DNA from: Alphaproteobacteria bacterium
GTDB lineage: Bacteria > Pseudomonadota > Alphaproteobacteria > RF32 > CAG-239
Direction of reading: 5' to 3'
Assembly (NCBI GenBank): GCA_017465405.1
Contig: JAFTWG010000001.1
Coordinates: forward strand, 126,261 to 190,260
Length of the DNA: 64,000 nucleotides
The translations under genes were made by a program, and so were the position numbers. The first letter of the stretch is position 1. Every line of letters starts with the position of its first letter. The notes beneath the pieces were generated by a model. The model was not told the DNA's origin and did no database searches. It saw only the letters and a program-made list of their open reading frames with translations. Below are positions 2,531-44,452 of the stretch, in pieces.

Positions 2531-3379
2531 ATGAGTATAGAAGACGAGATTAAAGCCTCTAAAGATTATTTGTTAACATTTGTTAGAGAAGATATAAAAA
2601 TACCAATACTTACTATTGATAATGTTGCCAGAGTTGAAGCAATGATACAAGTAGATTCAAGATATTCTAATAATAGAGATGAATATAATGGAGAGACTTC
2701 TTCAAATTTTTTTCATAAATTAAAAGAAATATTAAAAGATAAAGAAGAATTAAAAGATAATGAAAACACTTTAGAGACTTGTATTTATCAAATAGTACGC
2801 ACAATAGATAAGGAAAACAGCACTCATTTAAATTCAAATATAAGAGCAGAGGATGCTAAAGGTGATAATATAAAAAAAACAGGAAGGTACCTAATAGCAG
2901 ATAAAATCCTGCAGTTTAATAAAAAACGTTTTCTGGAGCATTTAACAAATCCCGACAAAGCATTAAAAGAAGATGGTCTTTTTCGAATAATTGAAATAAG
3001 TGGCGGACGTAAAAATACTTCTTTTGCCAGTAAATTTTGTCATTATGCATGTTTTAACTTATTTGATGATAAGAACAAAGACAATTATTCAATTTATGAC
3101 GCCGTAATAAGGATGGCTTTACCTATTTACATCAAGTGGCATAAAGTTACCGTTGAAAACATCAATTATAAGAATGAATATCGTAAAATAAGGAATGCTT
3201 TATGTAGAATAGATTATAAATTATATCAAACTATTGTTGATACTGTTCTAAAGGCTTCCGAAAGTGATATTAGTAGAAACGGATTTGACCATTTATTATG
3301 GTACTATTTCAAAGGAAAAAATGAGCAAGAAATAGAAGAAATCTACAACAGTATAGATACCATGAACAATTCTAAATAA
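2531..3379 (+). CDS. hypothetical protein (282 aa), possible abortive-infection-type protein
   Basis: Clean ORF with an upstream 'aggaaaataagcaATG' RBS and no family recognised; the role is suggested only by the island context. Confidence 0.35.
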   Translation: MSIEDEIKASKDYLLTFVREDIKIPILTIDNVARVEAMIQVDSRYSNNRDEYNGETSSNFFHKLKEILKDKEELKDNENTLETCIYQIVRTIDKENSTHLNSNIRAEDAKGDNIKKTGRYLIADKILQFNKKRFLEHLTNPDKALKEDGLFRIIEISGGRKNTSFASKFCHYACFNLFDDKNKDNYSIYDAVIRMALPIYIKWHKVTVENINYKNEYRKIRNALCRIDYKLYQTIVDTVLKASESDISRNGFDHLLWYYFKGKNEQEIEEIYNSIDTMNNSK

Positions 3380-37118: not shown

Positions 37119-38882
37119 TTAATCAATTTTTATTTTTAGCAATTCTTCACATTGCTTATCCATTTGTTCTTCGACGTTAACATAATTTTTTACTATGTCA
37201 TCAATATCGGCTTGGGTAATTTTTCGTTCTCGCAAGTCTATGGCTTTATAATCTTTTCCATAGACAGAGTAATAATCCTCGTACTTCAAATCCCCACCGA
37301 TTATTTCATCAGAAAAAGAAACTCGTTTGTTTGGAATCCCCAAAGCATCAGCAAATATTAAACCATGCAAAGAAGAAGATAAAATGCAATAACAATCCAT
37401 CATATCACGTAAAACTTGTATCGGAGTATCTTCAACTGTAATAATTTTCACATTATCAGGTATAACATTTTTTATACTTTCTTCATTTTTATCATAGAAG
37501 TGAGGAATTACACCAATATACTTACCTTTGGGACGATTATAGTCCTTAACTATTTCCCTTATCAAAACAGCCGGATCCGCAGTTATACTTACATTAATCC
37601 CCAGTAATTGCTTTATCTTTTCTTGAGATTTTTTTCCTCTTATCGCAAATATATTAAGTTTTCTTCCAAATTTTTCCGGGAACACAATATCTCGATGCAT
37701 TCCTGTACCTATTATAGTAATTTCTTTCTTTTCACGAACATTTCCCTCAAATATACGCGACAACAAAGAGCCTACACAATATAAATTTGCTCGATTAAGA
37801 TTAGGTATTACACACCAACCATAAATATAACGAGCAATATAAAGATTAAGCATGTCTCCAAAATTCGAAAAACCGGAAAAAACAGCCATTCTCCAGATTT
37901 TTCTTTTTCCCGGATATCGTCTTTTTCTGGTCACATACCAACATTTTAAATATGTAATAATCTTTTTAAAATAAGAGACTTTGGAATATTTGATAATATT
38001 TTCTGTTAAAACACAGCCATTATTTTTTGCAAAATCATATATTTTTTCCAGTTCTGCACTTTCAAACCCGTATTTTTTTATATCTGCAAAAACTTTTCTG
38101 AAAACTTTTTTATACTTTCGCAATAATAGTTTTCTGTATTCAGGAATATAACGTATATTGATTTCCCCACCCAGAACTGCATATAAATTTTTTATAAGAG
38201 CGTTTTGTCCTTGATATATTCCCTCCGCACTTATCCTGTACATATACGAACAATCAGGCAACACCGCCAAATTTCCAAATTTCAACATATAAAGGGTCAT
38301 TGTTGTATCATTTACAAAATTATATGGAAAATTTTGCGGAAAACCAAAATAAAAAATATTTCTGAAAGTAATAGAACAATTATGTACATATAATTTTTCT
38401 TGAATATACGACACTATGGAATAAATTTTAACTTCTTCACAAATAGGGTGAGGTTTCATATTTCCATTTTCTTGAACAAGAGTATGCCCGCTTCCGCATC
38501 CTATACATTTAGGATTTGCATTCAATACATCAACTTGTTTTTGAAATTTATATTCATCTCCGTAATAATCATCACCATCAAGCAACATAAAAAATTTGCC
38601 TTTAGCGTGTTTAATTAAATTTAAACGATTCGAAGCAGCTTTTTCGATATTTATGCAGTTCAAATCTGCGCAAAAAGATTCATACACCTTAATAAAATCA
38701 TATTTATCAGTGTATTCCTTTATTATTTTCAGGCTTTCTTCCTTTTTACCATCAAGTCCGATTAGCACTTCATAATCAAAGTTTGTTTTTTGACATACAA
38801 TACTATTTAATGTATTTCGTATATATTTTTCTTGATTACAAAAAGTTACACACACAGATAACGTTACCATAATGAGCTCCAA
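37119..38882 (-). CDS. bifunctional glycosyltransferase: N-terminal GT2 family + C-terminal polysaccharide pyruvyl-transferase-like domain
   Basis: N-terminal 'VTLSVCVTFCNQEKYIRNTLNSIVCQ...DYEVLIGLDG...FMLLDGDDYY' shows the GT-A DxD. The C-terminal half 'FSNFGDMLNLYIARYI...IIGTGMH' resembles PS_pyruv_trans. Confidence 0.55.
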   Translation of the reverse strand: MELIMVTLSVCVTFCNQEKYIRNTLNSIVCQKTNFDYEVLIGLDGKKEESLKIIKEYTDKYDFIKVYESFCADLNCINIEKAASNRLNLIKHAKGKFFMLLDGDDYYGDEYKFQKQVDVLNANPKCIGCGSGHTLVQENGNMKPHPICEEVKIYSIVSYIQEKLYVHNCSITFRNIFYFGFPQNFPYNFVNDTTMTLYMLKFGNLAVLPDCSYMYRISAEGIYQGQNALIKNLYAVLGGEINIRYIPEYRKLLLRKYKKVFRKVFADIKKYGFESAELEKIYDFAKNNGCVLTENIIKYSKVSYFKKIITYLKCWYVTRKRRYPGKRKIWRMAVFSGFSNFGDMLNLYIARYIYGWCVIPNLNRANLYCVGSLLSRIFEGNVREKKEITIIGTGMHRDIVFPEKFGRKLNIFAIRGKKSQEKIKQLLGINVSITADPAVLIREIVKDYNRPKGKYIGVIPHFYDKNEESIKNVIPDNVKIITVEDTPIQVLRDMMDCYCILSSSLHGLIFADALGIPNKRVSFSDEIIGGDLKYEDYYSVYGKDYKAIDLRERKITQADIDDIVKNYVNVEEQMDKQCEELLKIKID

Positions 38883-38960
38883 CAGTACAAAATAATAATT
38901 ACCTACATAACATAATATTATAAATATGCAACTTTATTTTATTTATTCTATAAAAAACAA

Positions 38961-38990
38961 AAAAGGTCGCATATCTCTATGCGACCTTTT
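38961..38990. terminator. hairpin 'ggtcgcatatctctatgcgacc' with A/T flanks
   Basis: Inverted repeat between mscL and the GT gene. Confidence 0.5.
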
Positions 38991-39010
38991 TGCACCATAA
39001 AAAATTATGA

Positions 39011-39499
39011 TTATTTTTTAGCTCTCGGTTTTCTTGCTTTTGGAGCATCTTCCTTAGCCTTTTCAGACTTCAATTCAGAAGTACAATGAGGGCAACGAGT
39101 AGCTTTTATATCAACAGTTGAACAACAAAACGGACACTGCTTGGTTGTCGGAGCTGCAGCTTCCGCATCAGCTTCTTTTTTATCCAATGCAGATTGAAGC
39201 TTGTTTAATGCCTTAATTAAAATGAACACGGCAAAAGCCACAATGATAAAACTGATTAACGCATTAAAGAACAAACCATAGTTAATAGAAACAGGATTTT
39301 CTCCTGAAGAAATAACCCATTTCAAATCTGAAAAATCAACCTTACCTAATAACAAACCGATAGGAGGCATAATTACATCTTTAACCATTGAGTCAACAAT
39401 TTTACCGAAAGCGGCACCGATGATAATACCGACAGCCATATCAATAACATTGCCACGCATTGCGAATTTTTTAAATTCCGTAAAAAAAGATTTTATCAT
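39011..39499 (-). CDS. mscL: large-conductance mechanosensitive channel MscL with C-terminal zinc-ribbon extension
   Basis: '[20 protein letters not shown]' is the MscL TM1 signature. The C-terminal '[18 protein letters not shown]' is a CxxC..CxxC ribbon followed by a Lys/Arg tail. Confidence 0.8.
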
Positions 39500-40119: not shown

Positions 40120-40308
40120 CTAACCAAAGATTAATTTAACGAGAAAGCCGAAAAACTGATCAACAAAAAAGAAAAATGTTGCAGCAATAGCGACCAAAAC
40201 CAAAACCATAAAAGAAGTTTGTGTAACTTCTCCTCTTGTCGGCCATGTAACTTTTTTAACCTCTTGTTTTACTTGTCTGAAAAATGTAATCGGATTAACT
40301 TTTGCCAT
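40120..40308 (-). CDS. secE: preprotein translocase subunit SecE
   Basis: 62 aa, 'FFRQVKQEVKKVTWPTRGEV' followed by one TM helix. Canonical position upstream of nusG. Confidence 0.85.
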   Translation of the reverse strand: MAKVNPITFFRQVKQEVKKVTWPTRGEVTQTSFMVLVLVAIAATFFFFVDQFFGFLVKLIFG

Positions 40309-40540: not shown

Positions 40541-41782
40541 TTAGCTCAAGTCTTTTCGGGTTCCATCCATATTAATTAACGTCTTTACTCCGTCAGCAAC
40601 TAACACATCCAGTTGTTTACCGAATTTCTTAGAACGTTTTAGCATAGTTACGATTTTACCTTCTTTCTGCAACTCTTTAGCTGTTTTTACTACATCTGCA
40701 AAAGACACATTGTCATCATAAGCCAAAACAACTTTTTCATTCATAAGTGGAACAAAACCTTCTTCTTGCAGAATGGCAGAAATTCGTTCAAATCCGATAG
40801 AAAAACCAACCGCCGGAACAGATTCTCCCAAAAACTTGCCAATCATACCGTCATAACGACCACCGCCGGCAACTGAAGAGCCAAATTTAGGGCTGACAAT
40901 TTCAAAAACCATACCGGTATAATATCCCATTCCTCTAACCAAAGACTTGTCATATACCGCTGTATATTTTCCGTCAGATACGGAATTGGCGAAATCTAAA
41001 ACTTTTTTAAGATTTTCAACCACATCTTTATTAGAACAATATTTTTCCGCAGCCGATAAAGCATTTTCATCTGCTACGCTCAAAATATCTATAAATTTCG
41101 CAACCACCTCAGAAGAATATTCTTTTTCCAAAAGCTCGTTTTTAACCCCGTCCAAACCTATTTTATCAAGTTTGTCAAAACTGATGCAAACAGAAGAAAC
41201 ATCATCAGCATTAAATCCTGCCGATAAAATCATATCAGTTAAAATGCGTCTATCATTGATTCTGACCGTAAAATCGCTAAAACCAATATCTTGCAGAGCA
41301 GAAGTAGTAGCTGCAATCAATTCCATTTCCGCATTTATACTTGCATCGCCGATTATATCAATATCGCATTGATAAAATTCACGCAACCGACCTTTTTGAG
41401 GTCTTTCAGCGCGAAATACCTTATCAATTTGCAAAGCCTTAAAGGGGGATGAAAGAAGATGTCTGTTGTTTGCATAATAACGAGATAAAGGCATTGTTAA
41501 GTCATAGCGGAGACCACTATCAACCAAATCATTTTCGGTTAAATTTTCTTGAGATAAATCCAATTTTTGTCCGCGTTTAAGCAATTTGAATATCATTGCT
41601 AAATTTTCGCCACCGTCACTTTGATTTAATCTGTCAATATCTTCCATAATCGGAGTATTAATCTTATTAAATCCGTAGCTCTTATATGAATTTTCAATTT
41701 TAGAACGCAAATAATCTCTGATTTCCACCTCTTTGGGCAAAAAATCTTTTGTGCCGCGAACCGGCAATGTGCTCATTTTCAT
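40541..41782 (-). CDS. hisS: histidine--tRNA ligase
   Basis: Class II aaRS motifs 'GTKDFLP', 'FRAERPQKGRLREFYQCD' and 'GGGRYDGM'. Start 'MKMSTLPVRG' is at 41782; the track starts at 41830. Confidence 0.9.
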   Translation of the reverse strand: MKMSTLPVRGTKDFLPKEVEIRDYLRSKIENSYKSYGFNKINTPIMEDIDRLNQSDGGENLAMIFKLLKRGQKLDLSQENLTENDLVDSGLRYDLTMPLSRYYANNRHLLSSPFKALQIDKVFRAERPQKGRLREFYQCDIDIIGDASINAEMELIAATTSALQDIGFSDFTVRINDRRILTDMILSAGFNADDVSSVCISFDKLDKIGLDGVKNELLEKEYSSEVVAKFIDILSVADENALSAAEKYCSNKDVVENLKKVLDFANSVSDGKYTAVYDKSLVRGMGYYTGMVFEIVSPKFGSSVAGGGRYDGMIGKFLGESVPAVGFSIGFERISAILQEEGFVPLMNEKVVLAYDDNVSFADVVKTAKELQKEGKIVTMLKRSKKFGKQLDVLVADGVKTLINMDGTRKDLS

Positions 41783-41910
41783 CTTTCTTTCCCTTATTTT
41801 ATACAAACAACAGCAACTTTTATAAAACACAAATAAACATAAATCAATTTTTTTATTATAACTTTCTTTAAGATAATCTTACTGATTTTATTTATACAAT
41901 AAAAAAAAGG

Positions 41911-41944: not shown

Positions 41945-42415
41945 TCAGATAATCACTTTCTGAGGTGCTGCCGCTTTGAGAACAAAGTGCAAATACACGT
42001 CAGAACGTTCCACACCATCATCACACTTCACACCGTTATCCCAACAGTATCGGGCATCAATCCGTCCATGCCAATCAGTATATACCGATGATGTTTTGGC
42101 TTGCTCAATCTCAAAATCGAACTGCCTGCTGCAAGAGTTAAACTCGGCAATTTCATCTGCCGCAACCAAACGAGCCCATAAACAGTTTGGATTTTTCTCA
42201 CGAAATTCCGCCACATAGGCATACGCTTCTTCCAAAGTCAGATTTTTTGCGAACGGAACTGCCGACATATAGACATTAACCTCCTCAACCGCAAAAATCC
42301 CCTTAGAACAATCGTGAAAACGATCTGTCTTTAGCCAAGCTACAAAACGTTTGCTTTTAACATCTGCATCTGCGAGATGAAAAAAATCTTCGTTCAGAAA
42401 TTTAATTTTTTCCAT
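41945..42415 (-). CDS. hypothetical protein (156 aa), markedly higher GC than surroundings
   Basis: ORF with about 45% GC by eye against a ~30% background. Confidence 0.4.
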   Translation of the reverse strand: MEKIKFLNEDFFHLADADVKSKRFVAWLKTDRFHDCSKGIFAVEEVNVYMSAVPFAKNLTLEEAYAYVAEFREKNPNCLWARLVAADEIAEFNSCSRQFDFEIEQAKTSSVYTDWHGRIDARYCWDNGVKCDDGVERSDVYLHFVLKAAAPQKVII

Positions 42416-42570
42416 AGTTTTGGTTTTGATTTAATTTAATAAAAATATCTTTTCATAAACTAAACATTATCATAGATTTCTTTGATAATCAACCGCCTTT
42501 TTCGATTAACATACAACAAAAACAAGCCCAATCCTAATGATTGAGCTTGTTGCATGGCAATATCAAAATA

Positions 42571-43155
42571 TTATTCTCCTTGATCACCTTTTCCAAAAAA
42601 TTTAGCAAGTCTTGATGATATGTTACTGCTTTGTGCATCTTGTTTTTTATACTTTGCAACAGTATTTTTAGCATCCATGGGAATACCATTTTCTTTTCTA
42701 TTGTGTTCTACAGTCATAACTCTAGACTTTTCAATATCACGTATTTTTCCGTCTTTTGTAATTGCACCGCTTTTCACATCTTCAAAATATCTAAAAGTTA
42801 TATCAGCTACTAAATAAGGATTGACATCATCTCCCATCGCTAAATCATATCGCTCATGAGCCTTTTTCATATCCTCTCTTGAAATTTCTGTTACATCAGT
42901 TGGTAATTTTCTTATAAGATGTGCAGCTGCTAATGTTGATAATACCAGTTCAGGAGAATCAGAAAACTTCTCAGGATTAACTTCTTTGAGAGCTTCCATT
43001 CTAACCTTTAGAATTTCTGGTATTGCTTCTACCTCATCTGGCCATTTAGAAACTGTTTTTGACAATTCAGATTTACGTCTTTGATACATTCTTTCCATAA
43101 GCTCAGATACTTTATCTACATTTTCTTCAGTTACTCTTATGCCTTCCCATCCCAT
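42571..43155 (-). CDS. hypothetical protein (194 aa)
   Basis: ORF only. Confidence 0.35.
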   Translation of the reverse strand: MGWEGIRVTEENVDKVSELMERMYQRRKSELSKTVSKWPDEVEAIPEILKVRMEALKEVNPEKFSDSPELVLSTLAAAHLIRKLPTDVTEISREDMKKAHERYDLAMGDDVNPYLVADITFRYFEDVKSGAITKDGKIRDIEKSRVMTVEHNRKENGIPMDAKNTVAKYKKQDAQSSNISSRLAKFFGKGDQGE

Positions 43156-43386
43156 TTTATTCTCTCCCCTAATAAATGATTTAACTAGCAGTTATAATAT
43201 CACACTTTATAAAAAAAACAACGCCATTATGACAAAATCATTGTTAAAATTTTTGTCCAGATAAATAAGCAAACAAATCTTTAAAGTCTTTTTATCAATA
43301 AACAAAAAAACTCTTTACTTTAGACAAAATTTATAGTATTAGTGTAACTAATAACTAAATTATTAACATCTATTAAATTTAAAGAA

Positions 43387-44136
43387 ATGGAACAGAAAAT
43401 CGTTAATTTTGTGGTTTCCCATAGTGAAATCAGTGCAGAAGATTTTGAAAAAATGACTTGGGCAGAACAAGTTGACTACATCTTACTGCATCTTGCAGGT
43501 GGTAGCAATCGTTGGTGCATCAACAAAAACTTCATGAGTTTCATGGCTCAATGTGGTAAGGAATGCATTAAGATGGATAGACAGACAGGACAAAAACTTG
43601 CTCCTACACTATTTGTTATCGCTATGCAACGACTTTCAAAGGGTGCGGTACTGCACGATGTGGTAAACTTTAAGGAACAGTTATCAAACAGATTTTGGCT
43701 ATATTCGTCGGCTCATGATGACTATCATATCATGACGCCTGATTGTCTAGAATTTATCTACAACGGCCTTATGGTTGCTGCACAACTTGAACCTACTAGA
43801 GATTATGCTCTAAAAATCGCTTGGGGGCTCACTGAACATCTTGACGAAAACGGCAATTGCCTCAATGGTTTTGACTTGTACTGCGAAAATTCAGCAGAAG
43901 AAGGGAAAAAATTATATGCTAAGGCTATTGAAATCATCGAAAAAACTGCATCCGCAGAGGATATCTTTTCTCGATATTCAAAACCGGGACAGTGGCAAAA
44001 GCACAAGCTGTGGCTGAAAAACTATCTCATGGAAAACAATCGCTGGAACGACTTTTTCAAAAAGATAGACGTTTCTACGAGTTTGTTTAATTTTCGCAAA
44101 CGTATGCAAATAATCCGAGAGATTAAATGTGCATAA
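43387..44136 (+). CDS. hypothetical protein (249 aa)
   Basis: ORF with about 40% GC, followed by a strong terminator. Confidence 0.4.
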   Translation: MEQKIVNFVVSHSEISAEDFEKMTWAEQVDYILLHLAGGSNRWCINKNFMSFMAQCGKECIKMDRQTGQKLAPTLFVIAMQRLSKGAVLHDVVNFKEQLSNRFWLYSSAHDDYHIMTPDCLEFIYNGLMVAAQLEPTRDYALKIAWGLTEHLDENGNCLNGFDLYCENSAEEGKKLYAKAIEIIEKTASAEDIFSRYSKPGQWQKHKLWLKNYLMENNRWNDFFKKIDVSTSLFNFRKRMQIIREIKCA

Positions 44137-44160
44137 AGTAGCACAATGATTTAAACAATA

Positions 44161-44190
44161 AAAAAAGACCGCTTTCAACGGTCTTTTTTT
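44161..44190 (+). terminator. rho-independent terminator 'aaaaaagaccgctttcaacggtcttttttt'
   Basis: Perfect stem plus a T7 run. Confidence 0.7.
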
Positions 44191-44211
44191 ATTGGCAGGG
44201 GCAGTAAGATT
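44184..44211. repeat. direct repeat copy 1: duplicated tRNA-Trp 3' end plus downstream flank (att-like)
   Basis: 'tttttttattggcaggggcagtaagatt' matches 44369-44395 at every base except a single extra T in the T-run. Confidence 0.7.
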
Positions 44212-44348
44212 GACTTGATTTATAAAAATCTGCGTCGCACTGGCGCTCATTGGCTTTTGCCAACCGCGATACCCGGTATCGCTTTCGCTTGTAGTCAAAC
44301 TCACTTTCTCGTGAGTTCGAACCATAACTTTCCCTATTGCCAACAAAA

Positions 44349-44376
44349 AAACCACCTAAAAAGGTGGCTTTTTTAT
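44349..44376. terminator. hairpin 'aaaaaaaccacctaaaaaggtggctttttt' immediately 3' of tRNA-Trp
   Basis: Inverted repeat that could terminate in either direction. Confidence 0.55.
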
Positions 44377-44395
44377 TGGCAGGGGCAGTAAGATT
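44369..44395. repeat. direct repeat copy 2 (part of tRNA-Trp 3' end)
   Basis: See copy 1. Confidence 0.7.
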
Positions 44396-44452
44396 CGAAC
44401 TCACGACACTCGGTTTTGGAGACCGATGCTCTACCAACTGAGCTATACCCCT
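44377..44452 (-). tRNA. tRNA-Trp (CCA)
   Basis: Reverse complement 'AGGGGTATAGCTCAGTTGGTAGAGCATCGGTCTCCAAAACCGAGTGTCGTGAGTTCGAATCTTACTGCCCCTGCCA'. Anticodon stem tcggt/accga with loop ctCCAaa, T-loop TTCGAAT, and an encoded CCA. Confidence 0.85.

Follow-up and report, generated by a model that had tools for sequence, protein, structure and literature searches.

Duplicated tRNA-Trp tails in an uncultured alphaproteobacterium probably bound a tRNA-linked repeat unit of the RtT kind

In Escherichia coli, the 178-bp repeats of the tyrT operon and the rtT RNA were already known in the late 1970s, and they are not known to have an agreed function. To judge from the curated Rfam family, they would seem an enterobacterial curiosity. 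The operon carries 3.14 copies of a 178-bp unit, each with the last 19 nucleotides (nt) of tRNA-Tyr. Islands and prophages with a tyrosine integrase also duplicate tRNA 3' ends, as attL and attR, and CIMEs are att-flanked non-autonomous elements. Here we analyzed a duplicated tRNA-Trp tail in a 64,000-nt stretch of DNA from Alphaproteobacteria bacterium (GTDB lineage RF32, CAG-239; GenBank assembly GCA_017465405.1, contig JAFTWG010000001.1, positions 126,261 to 190,260, forward strand), hereafter the window. The initial annotation had read this duplication as the signature of integration into the tRNA 3' end, bounding a 157-bp remnant next to three possible cargo genes. Our results indicate that the two tail copies probably delimit a single tRNA-linked repeat unit of the RtT kind, rather than being an insertion scar.

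The tRNA-Trp gene (anticodon CCA, CCA end encoded; identified by ARAGORN, 68.3 bits with the Rfam tRNA model) is located at 44377-44452 on the minus strand, and the unit (44192-44376, minus) lies directly 3' of it on the same strand, as in relatives. The duplication itself was described correctly: 27 nt are exact between 44185-44211 and 44369-44395, the figures of 28 and 27 nt arise from an extra T at 44184, and the spacer between the copies is 157 bp (44212-44368). The tRNA-proximal copy (44369-44395, minus, 100% identity) comprises the last 19 nt of tRNA-Trp (44377-44395; AATCTTACTGCCCCTGCCA, from the T-loop AAT to the encoded CCA) and the 8 nt ATAAAAAA in the A-tract of a terminator, T1. 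The distal copy (44185-44211, minus) comprises an identical pseudo 3' end of tRNA-Trp (44193-44211, AAUCUUACUGCCCCUGCCA) and the A-tract of a second terminator, T2. Because the 8 nt are the A-tracts of two different palindromic terminators, only 19 nt of the repeat are tRNA-derived. T1 (44346-44376, minus), a short hairpin (44352-44367) with flanking A and T runs, stands between the tRNA and the unit body; it is bidirectional in form, and its position holds a hairpin of different sequence in every unit. T2 (44156-44194) is a perfect palindrome with 16-nt arms (44156-44171 and 44179-44194, 100% complementary) and a hairpin core at 44167-44183, and is common to the unit on the minus strand and to an open reading frame (ORF), ORF3, on the plus strand.

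The T-arm-like piece noticed earlier between the copies is real: the tRNA-Trp 3' segment recurs there in inverted orientation (44309-44326 against 44389-44406, 89% complementary), which rules out a tRNA fragment or a second tRNA gene. As for the tmRNA or tRNA fragments suspected in the spacer, ARAGORN found no tmRNA, and Rfam at permissive thresholds gave tRNA as the sole family in the window. Weak matches of the unit to known RNA families (BjrC1505 at 23 bits, AgrB, leaders, and RNAI) were driven by the terminators and were rejected. A dispersed terminator or repeat family was likewise ruled out: the 23-nt repeat core occurs twice in the 64 kb with 3 mismatches allowed (0 expected from 100 shuffles), and there is one full-length unit match.

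That match was obtained with a covariance model, R1, built from eight alphaproteobacterial units with a closed structure. R1 aligned at full length to the 154-nt unit body (44192-44345, minus; 141.4 bits, E = 2.8e-41), and found no second significant full-length match in the window; the only other alignment, of 12.9 bits (E = 0.56), overlapped the tRNA gene. The period is 184 bp in the window, where the unit is single, and about 180-190 bp in relatives. In an alignment of the units on the tRNA strand, the 19-nt tRNA tail is followed by an A-tract, a variable hairpin, and a T-tract, which form the terminator, and then by TGGCA-nnn-GGG..., in which the acceptor and T-stem 3' strands recur inverted and diverged. 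In the window the inverted copy (44319-44342, minus) pairs with the terminal tRNA-like strand to form helix P1. The next element is the hairpin HP2, which reads GAACTCAC / GNNRAA / GTGAGTTY in the alignment and GAACUCAC / GAGAAA / GUGAGUUU in the window (44297-44318, minus), and in which 97% of cells are paired among 27 distinct units (helix 3 of the model). GAC and the conserved block ACTACAAGCGAAAG follow, then 2-3 hairpins of variable sequence, the block GAGCGC..GTGCGAC, and AAT with the remaining tRNA tail. The conserved domain inserted at the fixed T-loop position (X domain; 44212-44296, minus) carries the ACUACAAGCGAAAG motif, Px1 (44266-44282), Px2 (44250-44263), and Px3 (44212-44236). 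The HP2 stem is the T-stem 5' strand of the tRNA plus UUC, paired with its own complement, and it varies with the neighboring tRNA (Trp, Ser, or Tyr). Because the arms follow the neighboring tRNA in this way, the unit can be described as a copy of tRNA positions ~49-76 that carries a domain of ~95 nt at one T-loop site (TTYGA / ... / AAT), with an inverted copy placed first. Thus, the 157 bp are part of a conserved structured module and not the decayed remnant of an element that had been proposed.

The distribution of the module was examined in 80 related loci of uncultured gut and rumen Alphaproteobacteria, collected by a protein scan with LptG; comparison loci are given L numbers. A gut metagenome contig (L001) is identical to the window. 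Units stand directly 3' of tRNA-Trp in L005, L013, L083, L092, L117, and about 30 metagenome loci, and in L005, L013, L083, and L079 the DNA downstream of tRNA-Trp resembles that of the window. A scan of metagenome contigs with the invariant hairpin GAACTCACGNNRAARTGAGTT gave 42 loci, about 34 of which have the whole module, adjoining tRNA-Trp wherever the contig extends that far. Tandem arrays occur in L013 (2.4 contig-internal copies of a 192-bp unit, 96% identity), L092 (2-3 units), and L117 (3 units); the duplicated 19 nt would provide homology for unequal crossing-over, which could explain such arrays. The unit is absent from L008, L009, L011, and L025. Three further loci (L062, L049, and L099) carry units 3' of tRNA-Ser. 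Their middle part is that of the Trp units (..CACTACAAGGCGCAGGCAGACGGAAGTATGCC..), whereas the inverted piece, the stem of HP2 (GAAGTCCC / GGGGGTTC), and the tail copy at the end (AATCCCTCCTCATCCGCCA) all match tRNA-Ser. In L132 and L133 an ORF3 homologue is flanked by units of another type, which end in ..GCGCACCA, the 3' end of a further tRNA; no tRNA gene is present on the L132 stretch. The L132 units share the conserved middle, and their inverted piece, hairpin stem, and terminal copy correspond to that further tRNA.

Some relatives carry altered units. In L132 (1-1230) and L133, the ORF3 homologue stands between one complete and one truncated RtT-like unit, both with the ..GCGCACCA end, and each side of the gene carries a copy of the same ~100 bp (core, terminator, inverted copy, and hairpin), which would fit capture of the gene inside an array. 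In L006, whose LptG is 98% identical to that of the window, the unit (3040-3110) is broken exactly in the HP2 loop, between ..AACTCACGAGAAAG and GGGGATCGAC.., and past the break there is a collapsed, hybrid-looking remnant that ends in ..CAAGAGTAAAA. The three-unit array of L117 (5150-5850 of a 76-kb rumen contig) has no intact tRNA-Trp upstream and starts at the truncated tail GGTTCTTACTGCCCCTGCCA. Upstream of the array are a consensus promoter (TTGACA-17-TATACA), located on the tRNA strand, and mobile-looking genes (ankyrin repeats, DUF3768, and HTH_36), and the region resembles the attR side of a large inserted element.

We compared the module with the E. coli K-12 tyrT locus (L128; NC_000913 1286000-1288200), for which tyrT, tyrV, the non-coding RNA gene rttR, and the ORF tpr are annotated, and no integrase is annotated in the 2.2 kb. 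The locus contains 3.1 copies of a 178-bp repeat and three Rfam RtT matches (134-137 bits), and each unit carries the 19-nt tRNA tail AATCCTTCCCCCACCACCA. The E. coli unit contains GGGGAAGGAT, an inverted piece of the T-stem 3' and acceptor strands, and continues with AAGGTTCGA / C, TCGAGCG..AGCGAGAGAGCG, hairpins, and ..GCTGAGT / AATCCTTCCCCCACCACCA. The T-loop junctions of the two groups match (TTCGA / C... and ...GAGT / AATCC), and P1 of Rfam RtT is the inverted copy paired with the tRNA-like strand. With filters off, R1 found four of four E. coli units, at full length and on the tRNA strand. The best match (1363-1496, minus; 23.1 bits, E = 1.7e-6) is in the tyrT-tyrV spacer; the other three (1066-1197, 888-1019, and 710-841; 17.3, 14.3, and 13.7 bits; E = 1e-4 to 1.6e-3) are within 1 nt of the Rfam RtT coordinates, and the next match has 5 bits (E = 0.78). 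The spacer thus holds a fourth RtT-like unit, whose HP2 (GAACCTT / AAGGTTC) is the tRNA-Tyr T-stem; Rfam RtT at its gathering score gives only the three units downstream of tyrV. Much of the Rfam RtT score is carried by the tRNA-derived parts, which are Tyr-specific. From these comparisons we conclude that the module is most likely an RtT-type unit with a detectable relation to the E. coli repeats, and that it does not fall within RF00391 as curated.

RNA-like features of the unit were then considered. Single-sequence folds (minimum free energy (MFE) and centroid) were recurrently closed structures with P1 (the inverted copy and the tRNA-like strand), HP2, Px1, Px2, and Px3. In a covariation test, 27 distinct units were aligned to R1, so that the alignment was fitted to the model and favored the structure. 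In this alignment 81% of cells were paired, compared with 70% in column shuffles (none of 500 shuffles reached 81%) and at most 37% in slid controls, and 22 pairs had changed on both sides against 14.5 expected. Helices 1 and 2, which belong to the closing P1, were 81% and 51% paired, respectively. Px1 showed GC/CG (17:8), CG/GC (16:9), and AU/GC (14:12) alternations, and Px3 a GC/AU alternation (17:7). The evidence from the slid controls and the double changes is strong despite the model-fitted alignment. RNAalifold on a plain MAFFT alignment recovered the invariant hairpin only. The unit body in the window (44192-44345) folds on the minus strand with an MFE of -51.7 kcal/mol (z = -3.97). In most units the Px1 loop reads GGAA, GAAA, GGGA, or GUAA on the tRNA strand, that is, GNRA, and the Px1 helix holds a conserved G.A mismatch on this strand only. 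Because GNRA loops are an RNA feature and the opposite strand would read UUCC and similar sequences, the tRNA strand is favored. A protein-coding unit (a tpr-like or plus-strand ORF) was rejected, as the longest open frame differs in strand and reading frame from one unit to another, and its start is not conserved.

From the anatomy and the E. coli case, we infer a route by which the unit might be expressed as RNA. Read-through of T1 from the tRNA-Trp promoter would give a co-transcript that ends at T2. The unit RNA would fold as a closed multi-helix structure, with the inverted copy and the tRNA-like 3' strand as its closing helix, and the tRNA-identical 3' end could be processed by tRNA end-maturation enzymes, as E. 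coli rtT RNA is cut from the tyrT transcript. The mode of action of rttR is still unknown (bioRxiv 10.1101/2024.07.17.603846).

Several points weigh against reading the locus as an RtT-like unit expressed as RNA. The Rfam RtT model gave no match in the window at E <= 10 and none in L117 at E <= 0.5, and a sequence-only nhmmer profile of the alphaproteobacterial units found nothing in E. coli. Evidence for homology thus comes from a single covariance model, whose E-values are roughly calibrated, and from the anatomy. An intrinsic terminator lies between CCA and the inverted copy in every alphaproteobacterial unit and in none of the E. coli units, and T1 would need to be leaky for the RNA route; no promoter-like site was found inside the unit. 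The strand is not decided by folding (z = -3.97 for minus versus -4.15 for plus) or by counts of G.U against A.C (38 versus 37), and the model-fitted alignment of the covariation test belongs among these points. The terminal copy of the unit in L005, a relative with 99% LptG identity, has 3 mismatches, so this copy is not strictly constrained. Because the window has a single unit, array formation is seen solely in relatives.

The repeat also serves as an attachment site in relatives. L120 shares 90.6% identity with the window over LptG, the tRNA, and the unit; its unit ends in ..CTGCCCCTGCCA, after which come AAAATCAACACCAATCTATTGATTTTACAATAGATTGGTGTT... and a 61-amino-acid (aa) ORF with a Pfam DUF6538 match (36.5 bits; cutoff, 27). 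In L254, which has no unit, the genuine tRNA-Trp CCA is followed by AAAATTAACACC... and a 72-aa DUF6538 ORF, an element left end common to L120. These two junctions indicate that an integrase family targets the tRNA-Trp tail, and that both the genuine tail and the unit copy have served it. Full-length homologues of the DUF6538 ORF (~600 aa) have an N-terminal DUF6538 and a C-terminal Phage_integrase domain, and L256 has an intact homologue of this type 79 nt past tRNA-His, with resolvase and zeta-toxin genes behind it. In L255 the X domain of the unit has been joined to the same DUF6538 ORF by a deletion. Thus, the repeat is a genuine attachment site in relatives, and to that extent the integration signature proposed earlier stands; the direct repeat is not by itself a scar, because every member of the module ends in the last ~19 nt of its neighboring tRNA. 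In relatives, the duplicated 19 nt provide a second attB for tyrosine integrases that target tRNA-Trp, so that islands land either at the tRNA or where the unit ends distally. The human-gut relatives have cargo between the tRNA and a decayed core copy, with the unit after that copy, as insertion at the tRNA itself predicts.

The integrase remnants of L120 (2388-2570), L254 (4017-4235), and L255 (1860-2114) keep an open DUF6538 frame of 61-84 aa with 71-85% identity and differing C-termini. They may derive from one truncated ancestor, or an arm-binding-like domain may be retained as a small protein. A tblastn search of plasmids with the integrase fragment gave no match, and no mention of DUF6538 was found in the literature. 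In the human-gut relatives L126 (3886-6084) and L116 (2594-4198), the cargo between tRNA-Trp and the unit includes a UvrD/GajB-like helicase (PADLOC GajB, ~290 bits) and a STAND-like ATPase, which suggests that the hotspot may hold defence genes.

In the window, strain-specific DNA starts just past the distal repeat copy. The likely ancestral order is LptG, tRNA-Trp, secE, nusG; in L008, which has an empty site, secE starts 54 nt after tRNA-Trp. The window has 4.07 kb between tRNA-Trp and secE (40120-40308), taken up by the 184-bp unit, three ORFs, and hisS (histidine--tRNA ligase; 40541-41830, minus; TIGR00442, 314.7 bits, above cutoff), which comes before secE and is the conserved inner flank of the islet in the species. 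ORF3 (43387-44136, plus, 249 aa) is absent from L005 and L006, ORF2 (42571-43155, minus, 194 aa) is present in L006 and absent from L005, and ORF1 (41945-42415, minus, 156 aa) is present in both. A 1083-aa S41-peptidase/kinase protein replaces ORF3 and ORF2 in L005, and proteins of 519 aa (with a GNAT domain) and 348 aa replace ORF3 in L006, which also has a 729-aa protein, by eye probably a glycosyltransferase, between ORF1 and hisS. Because L005 and L006 differ exactly there, the islet is accessory and strain-variable, most so at its repeat end.

The three ORFs are indeed uncharacterized, as noted at first: against Pfam, PHROG, and PADLOC, they gave sub-threshold scores and no match above the curated cutoffs. 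ORF1 is an orphan: among 5.8 billion proteins, only 2 clusters are related to it. ORF3 is a clade-restricted accessory gene with 19 relatives, some of which again lie next to units; its predicted fold (pLDDT 94) is all-alpha, of HEAT/ARM-like helical repeats, with no informative match. The G + C contents are 42.0% (ORF1), 39.1% (ORF3), and 33.5% (ORF2), against a window mean of 34.0% (standard deviation 4.2% in windows of ORF1 size), so that the contrast of 45% with a 30% background given in the initial annotation was overstated; ORF1 is the sole outlier, in the top 2.3% of windows. The proposal that these genes are integrative cargo is borne out in that they are accessory and strain-variable; they lie outside the repeats, and the window contains no integrase and no third core. 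They are accessory cargo at the distal site of the unit, and their delivery by an integrase element at the pseudo-tail is plausible.

No third core copy or inverted copy bounds the far end of the islet. A 10-mer alone is present at 41875-41884, and it is probably due to chance because it is not conserved in L005. The plus strand at 41875-41906 reads AATCTTACTG, 12 nt, and CAATAAAAAAAA with a terminator hairpin, and resembles a degenerate inverted core with its terminator. Farther away, mscL and a 587-aa ORF (called as 583 aa, with glycosyltransferase/pyruvyl-transferase domains) lie between nusG and rplK (37119-39499, minus) and break the usually contiguous secE-nusG-rplKAJL, and in this species hisS stands between tRNA-Trp and secE. 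In L131 (SUUR01000011, 3265-12603), an island upstream of secE carries an ORF3 homologue together with an 861-aa SIR2-domain protein, a 528-aa large serine recombinase, and a D12 methyltransferase, with no tRNA and no unit in the 12.6 kb covered.

The unit might be a small non-autonomous mobile element, either an att-flanked mini-element or a retained attP arm, moved or made in trans by tRNA-targeting integrases. It is patchy among close relatives and forms tandem arrays, its X domain stays the same while the flanking pieces match the adjoining tRNA, att-core direct copies bound it, the L006 unit is broken exactly in the HP2 loop, and integrase remnants adjoin. Against this, the GNRA loops and the conserved G.A mismatch point to selection at the RNA level, the E. 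coli relative is annotated as a processed RNA, and there is one copy per locus and not a dispersed family. No unit lies beside the intact L256 integrase. Since the element left ends in L254, L120, and L256 lack unit sequence and the mobile-DNA right end in L117 lacks X sequence, the unit is not simply an attP arm. A phage-borne attP was also rejected: the hairpin pattern gave one chance match, and the 15-mer GACTACAAGCGARAG gave more than 120 viral matches, which we ascribe to chance because none of the 80 viral loci examined matched R1. Taken together, we regard a mobile unit as unlikely.

A classical att duplication, in which a tyrosine-integrase element entered the tRNA-Trp 3' end, left the 157 bp behind, and brought the three genes as cargo of the same or a tandem element without an integrase, appears quite unlikely. 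The length and position of the repeat (T-loop to 3' end, matching the tRNA exactly) are the usual ones, DUF6538 integrases use the same sequence in relatives, the human-gut relatives carry cargo between the tRNA and the decayed core copy, and the islet is strain-variable, with an empty site in L008 and no unit in L009, L011, and L025. However, the 157 bp and their covarying helices are conserved among species, in units of at least three tRNA types, and in E. coli, and the segment holds no mobility or cargo genes. The islet genes are outside the repeat-bounded segment, and the integrase element left ends of L254, L120, and L256 carry no unit sequence. No integrase remnant was detected in the window by tblastn or Pfam, where a third core copy is also lacking, and no intact integrase was found in any islet examined. 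A plus-strand product, either a small RNA (sRNA) terminated by T1 in reverse with its 5' part antisense to the tRNA-Trp 3' end or a small basic peptide, is very improbable: the plus strand folds equally well, T1 and T2 are bidirectional in form, an open frame spans the L117 units, and the alphaproteobacterial sRNA BjrC1505 matches the plus strand weakly over its full length (23 bits; gathering score, 50), but the Px1 loops would then be UUCC, UUUC, or UCCC and the conserved mismatch U.C, the longest open frame is not stable in strand or frame, no promoter-like site was found, and E. coli rttR is on the tRNA strand.

With the RtT-like unit that we favor at this locus, the architecture of the E. 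coli repeats recurs in uncultured gut Alphaproteobacteria beside different tRNAs, with arms that track the neighbor, which points to an old and general element. The covarying helices, invariant motifs, and fixed T-loop junction provide comparative material with which the RNA function and the origin of the unit can be tested. The locus also illustrates that a tRNA-tail duplication can mislead island-finding heuristics, and that pseudo-tails can be real secondary integration sites, which helps to explain gene-content hotspots with no resident integrase. One can go further and speculate, though we consider it doubtful, that RtT-like units are widespread, self-renewing, tRNA-templated elements, in which a ~95-nt domain at a fixed T-loop site of a copied tRNA 3' segment and its inverted copy would be re-templated on tRNA-Trp, -Ser, -Tyr, and others across Alpha- and Gammaproteobacteria, each unit adding a spare attB, or else that they are made by the integrases that use these sites. 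This tentative idea turns on how the same internal domain gains its flanks from whichever tRNA it follows. If it is true, the units would be landing pads that keep integrase-borne islands off the essential tRNA gene and give rise to accessory-gene hotspots with no integrase in residence.

Among known systems, the attL/attR duplications of tyrosine-integrase elements (P4-like and others) share with the window a repeat of ~19-27 nt from the T-loop to CCA, adjoining variable accessory genes, and, in relatives, an integrase family for the same sequence. In contrast, the repeats in the window enclose a 157-bp conserved structured module, and the cargo lies outside, with no integrase and no distal repeat. 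CIMEs are similar in being short segments between two att cores that lack a recombinase and lie next to a tRNA-type accretion site; they are decayed and have no conserved RNA-like structure, whereas the unit sequence is conserved across bacterial classes and its arms track the tRNA. The rrA, rrB, and rrF sRNA genes, located between the dual terminators of E. coli rrn operons, are likewise short RNA genes between two terminators downstream of a stable-RNA gene (PMC8144298), and the unit would be expressed by the same route. The rrn sRNAs have no sequence relation to the unit and are not known to carry a copy of the upstream RNA 3' end or to form arrays, and their expression was measured, whereas that of the unit is deduced. 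The closest system is RtT of E. coli. The two differ in bacterial class (Alpha- versus Gammaproteobacteria), in the tRNA they follow (Trp, Ser, and one other versus Tyr), and in number, with one unit in the window and an array in E. coli; HP2 is long and perfect in the alphaproteobacterial units, which have no tpr-like ORF. Both kinds lie directly 3' of a tRNA on the same strand with a period of ~180 bp and tandem units (in the alphaproteobacterial case, in the arrays of relatives), and both end each unit in the last 19 nt of the tRNA, from the T-loop AAT. In both, the T-stem 5' strand and TTCGA are followed by a conserved insert (..ACU.C.AGCGA(A/G)AG.., hairpins, ..GAGU / AAUC), and the inverted copy pairs with the tRNA-like 3' strand, as in Rfam P1.

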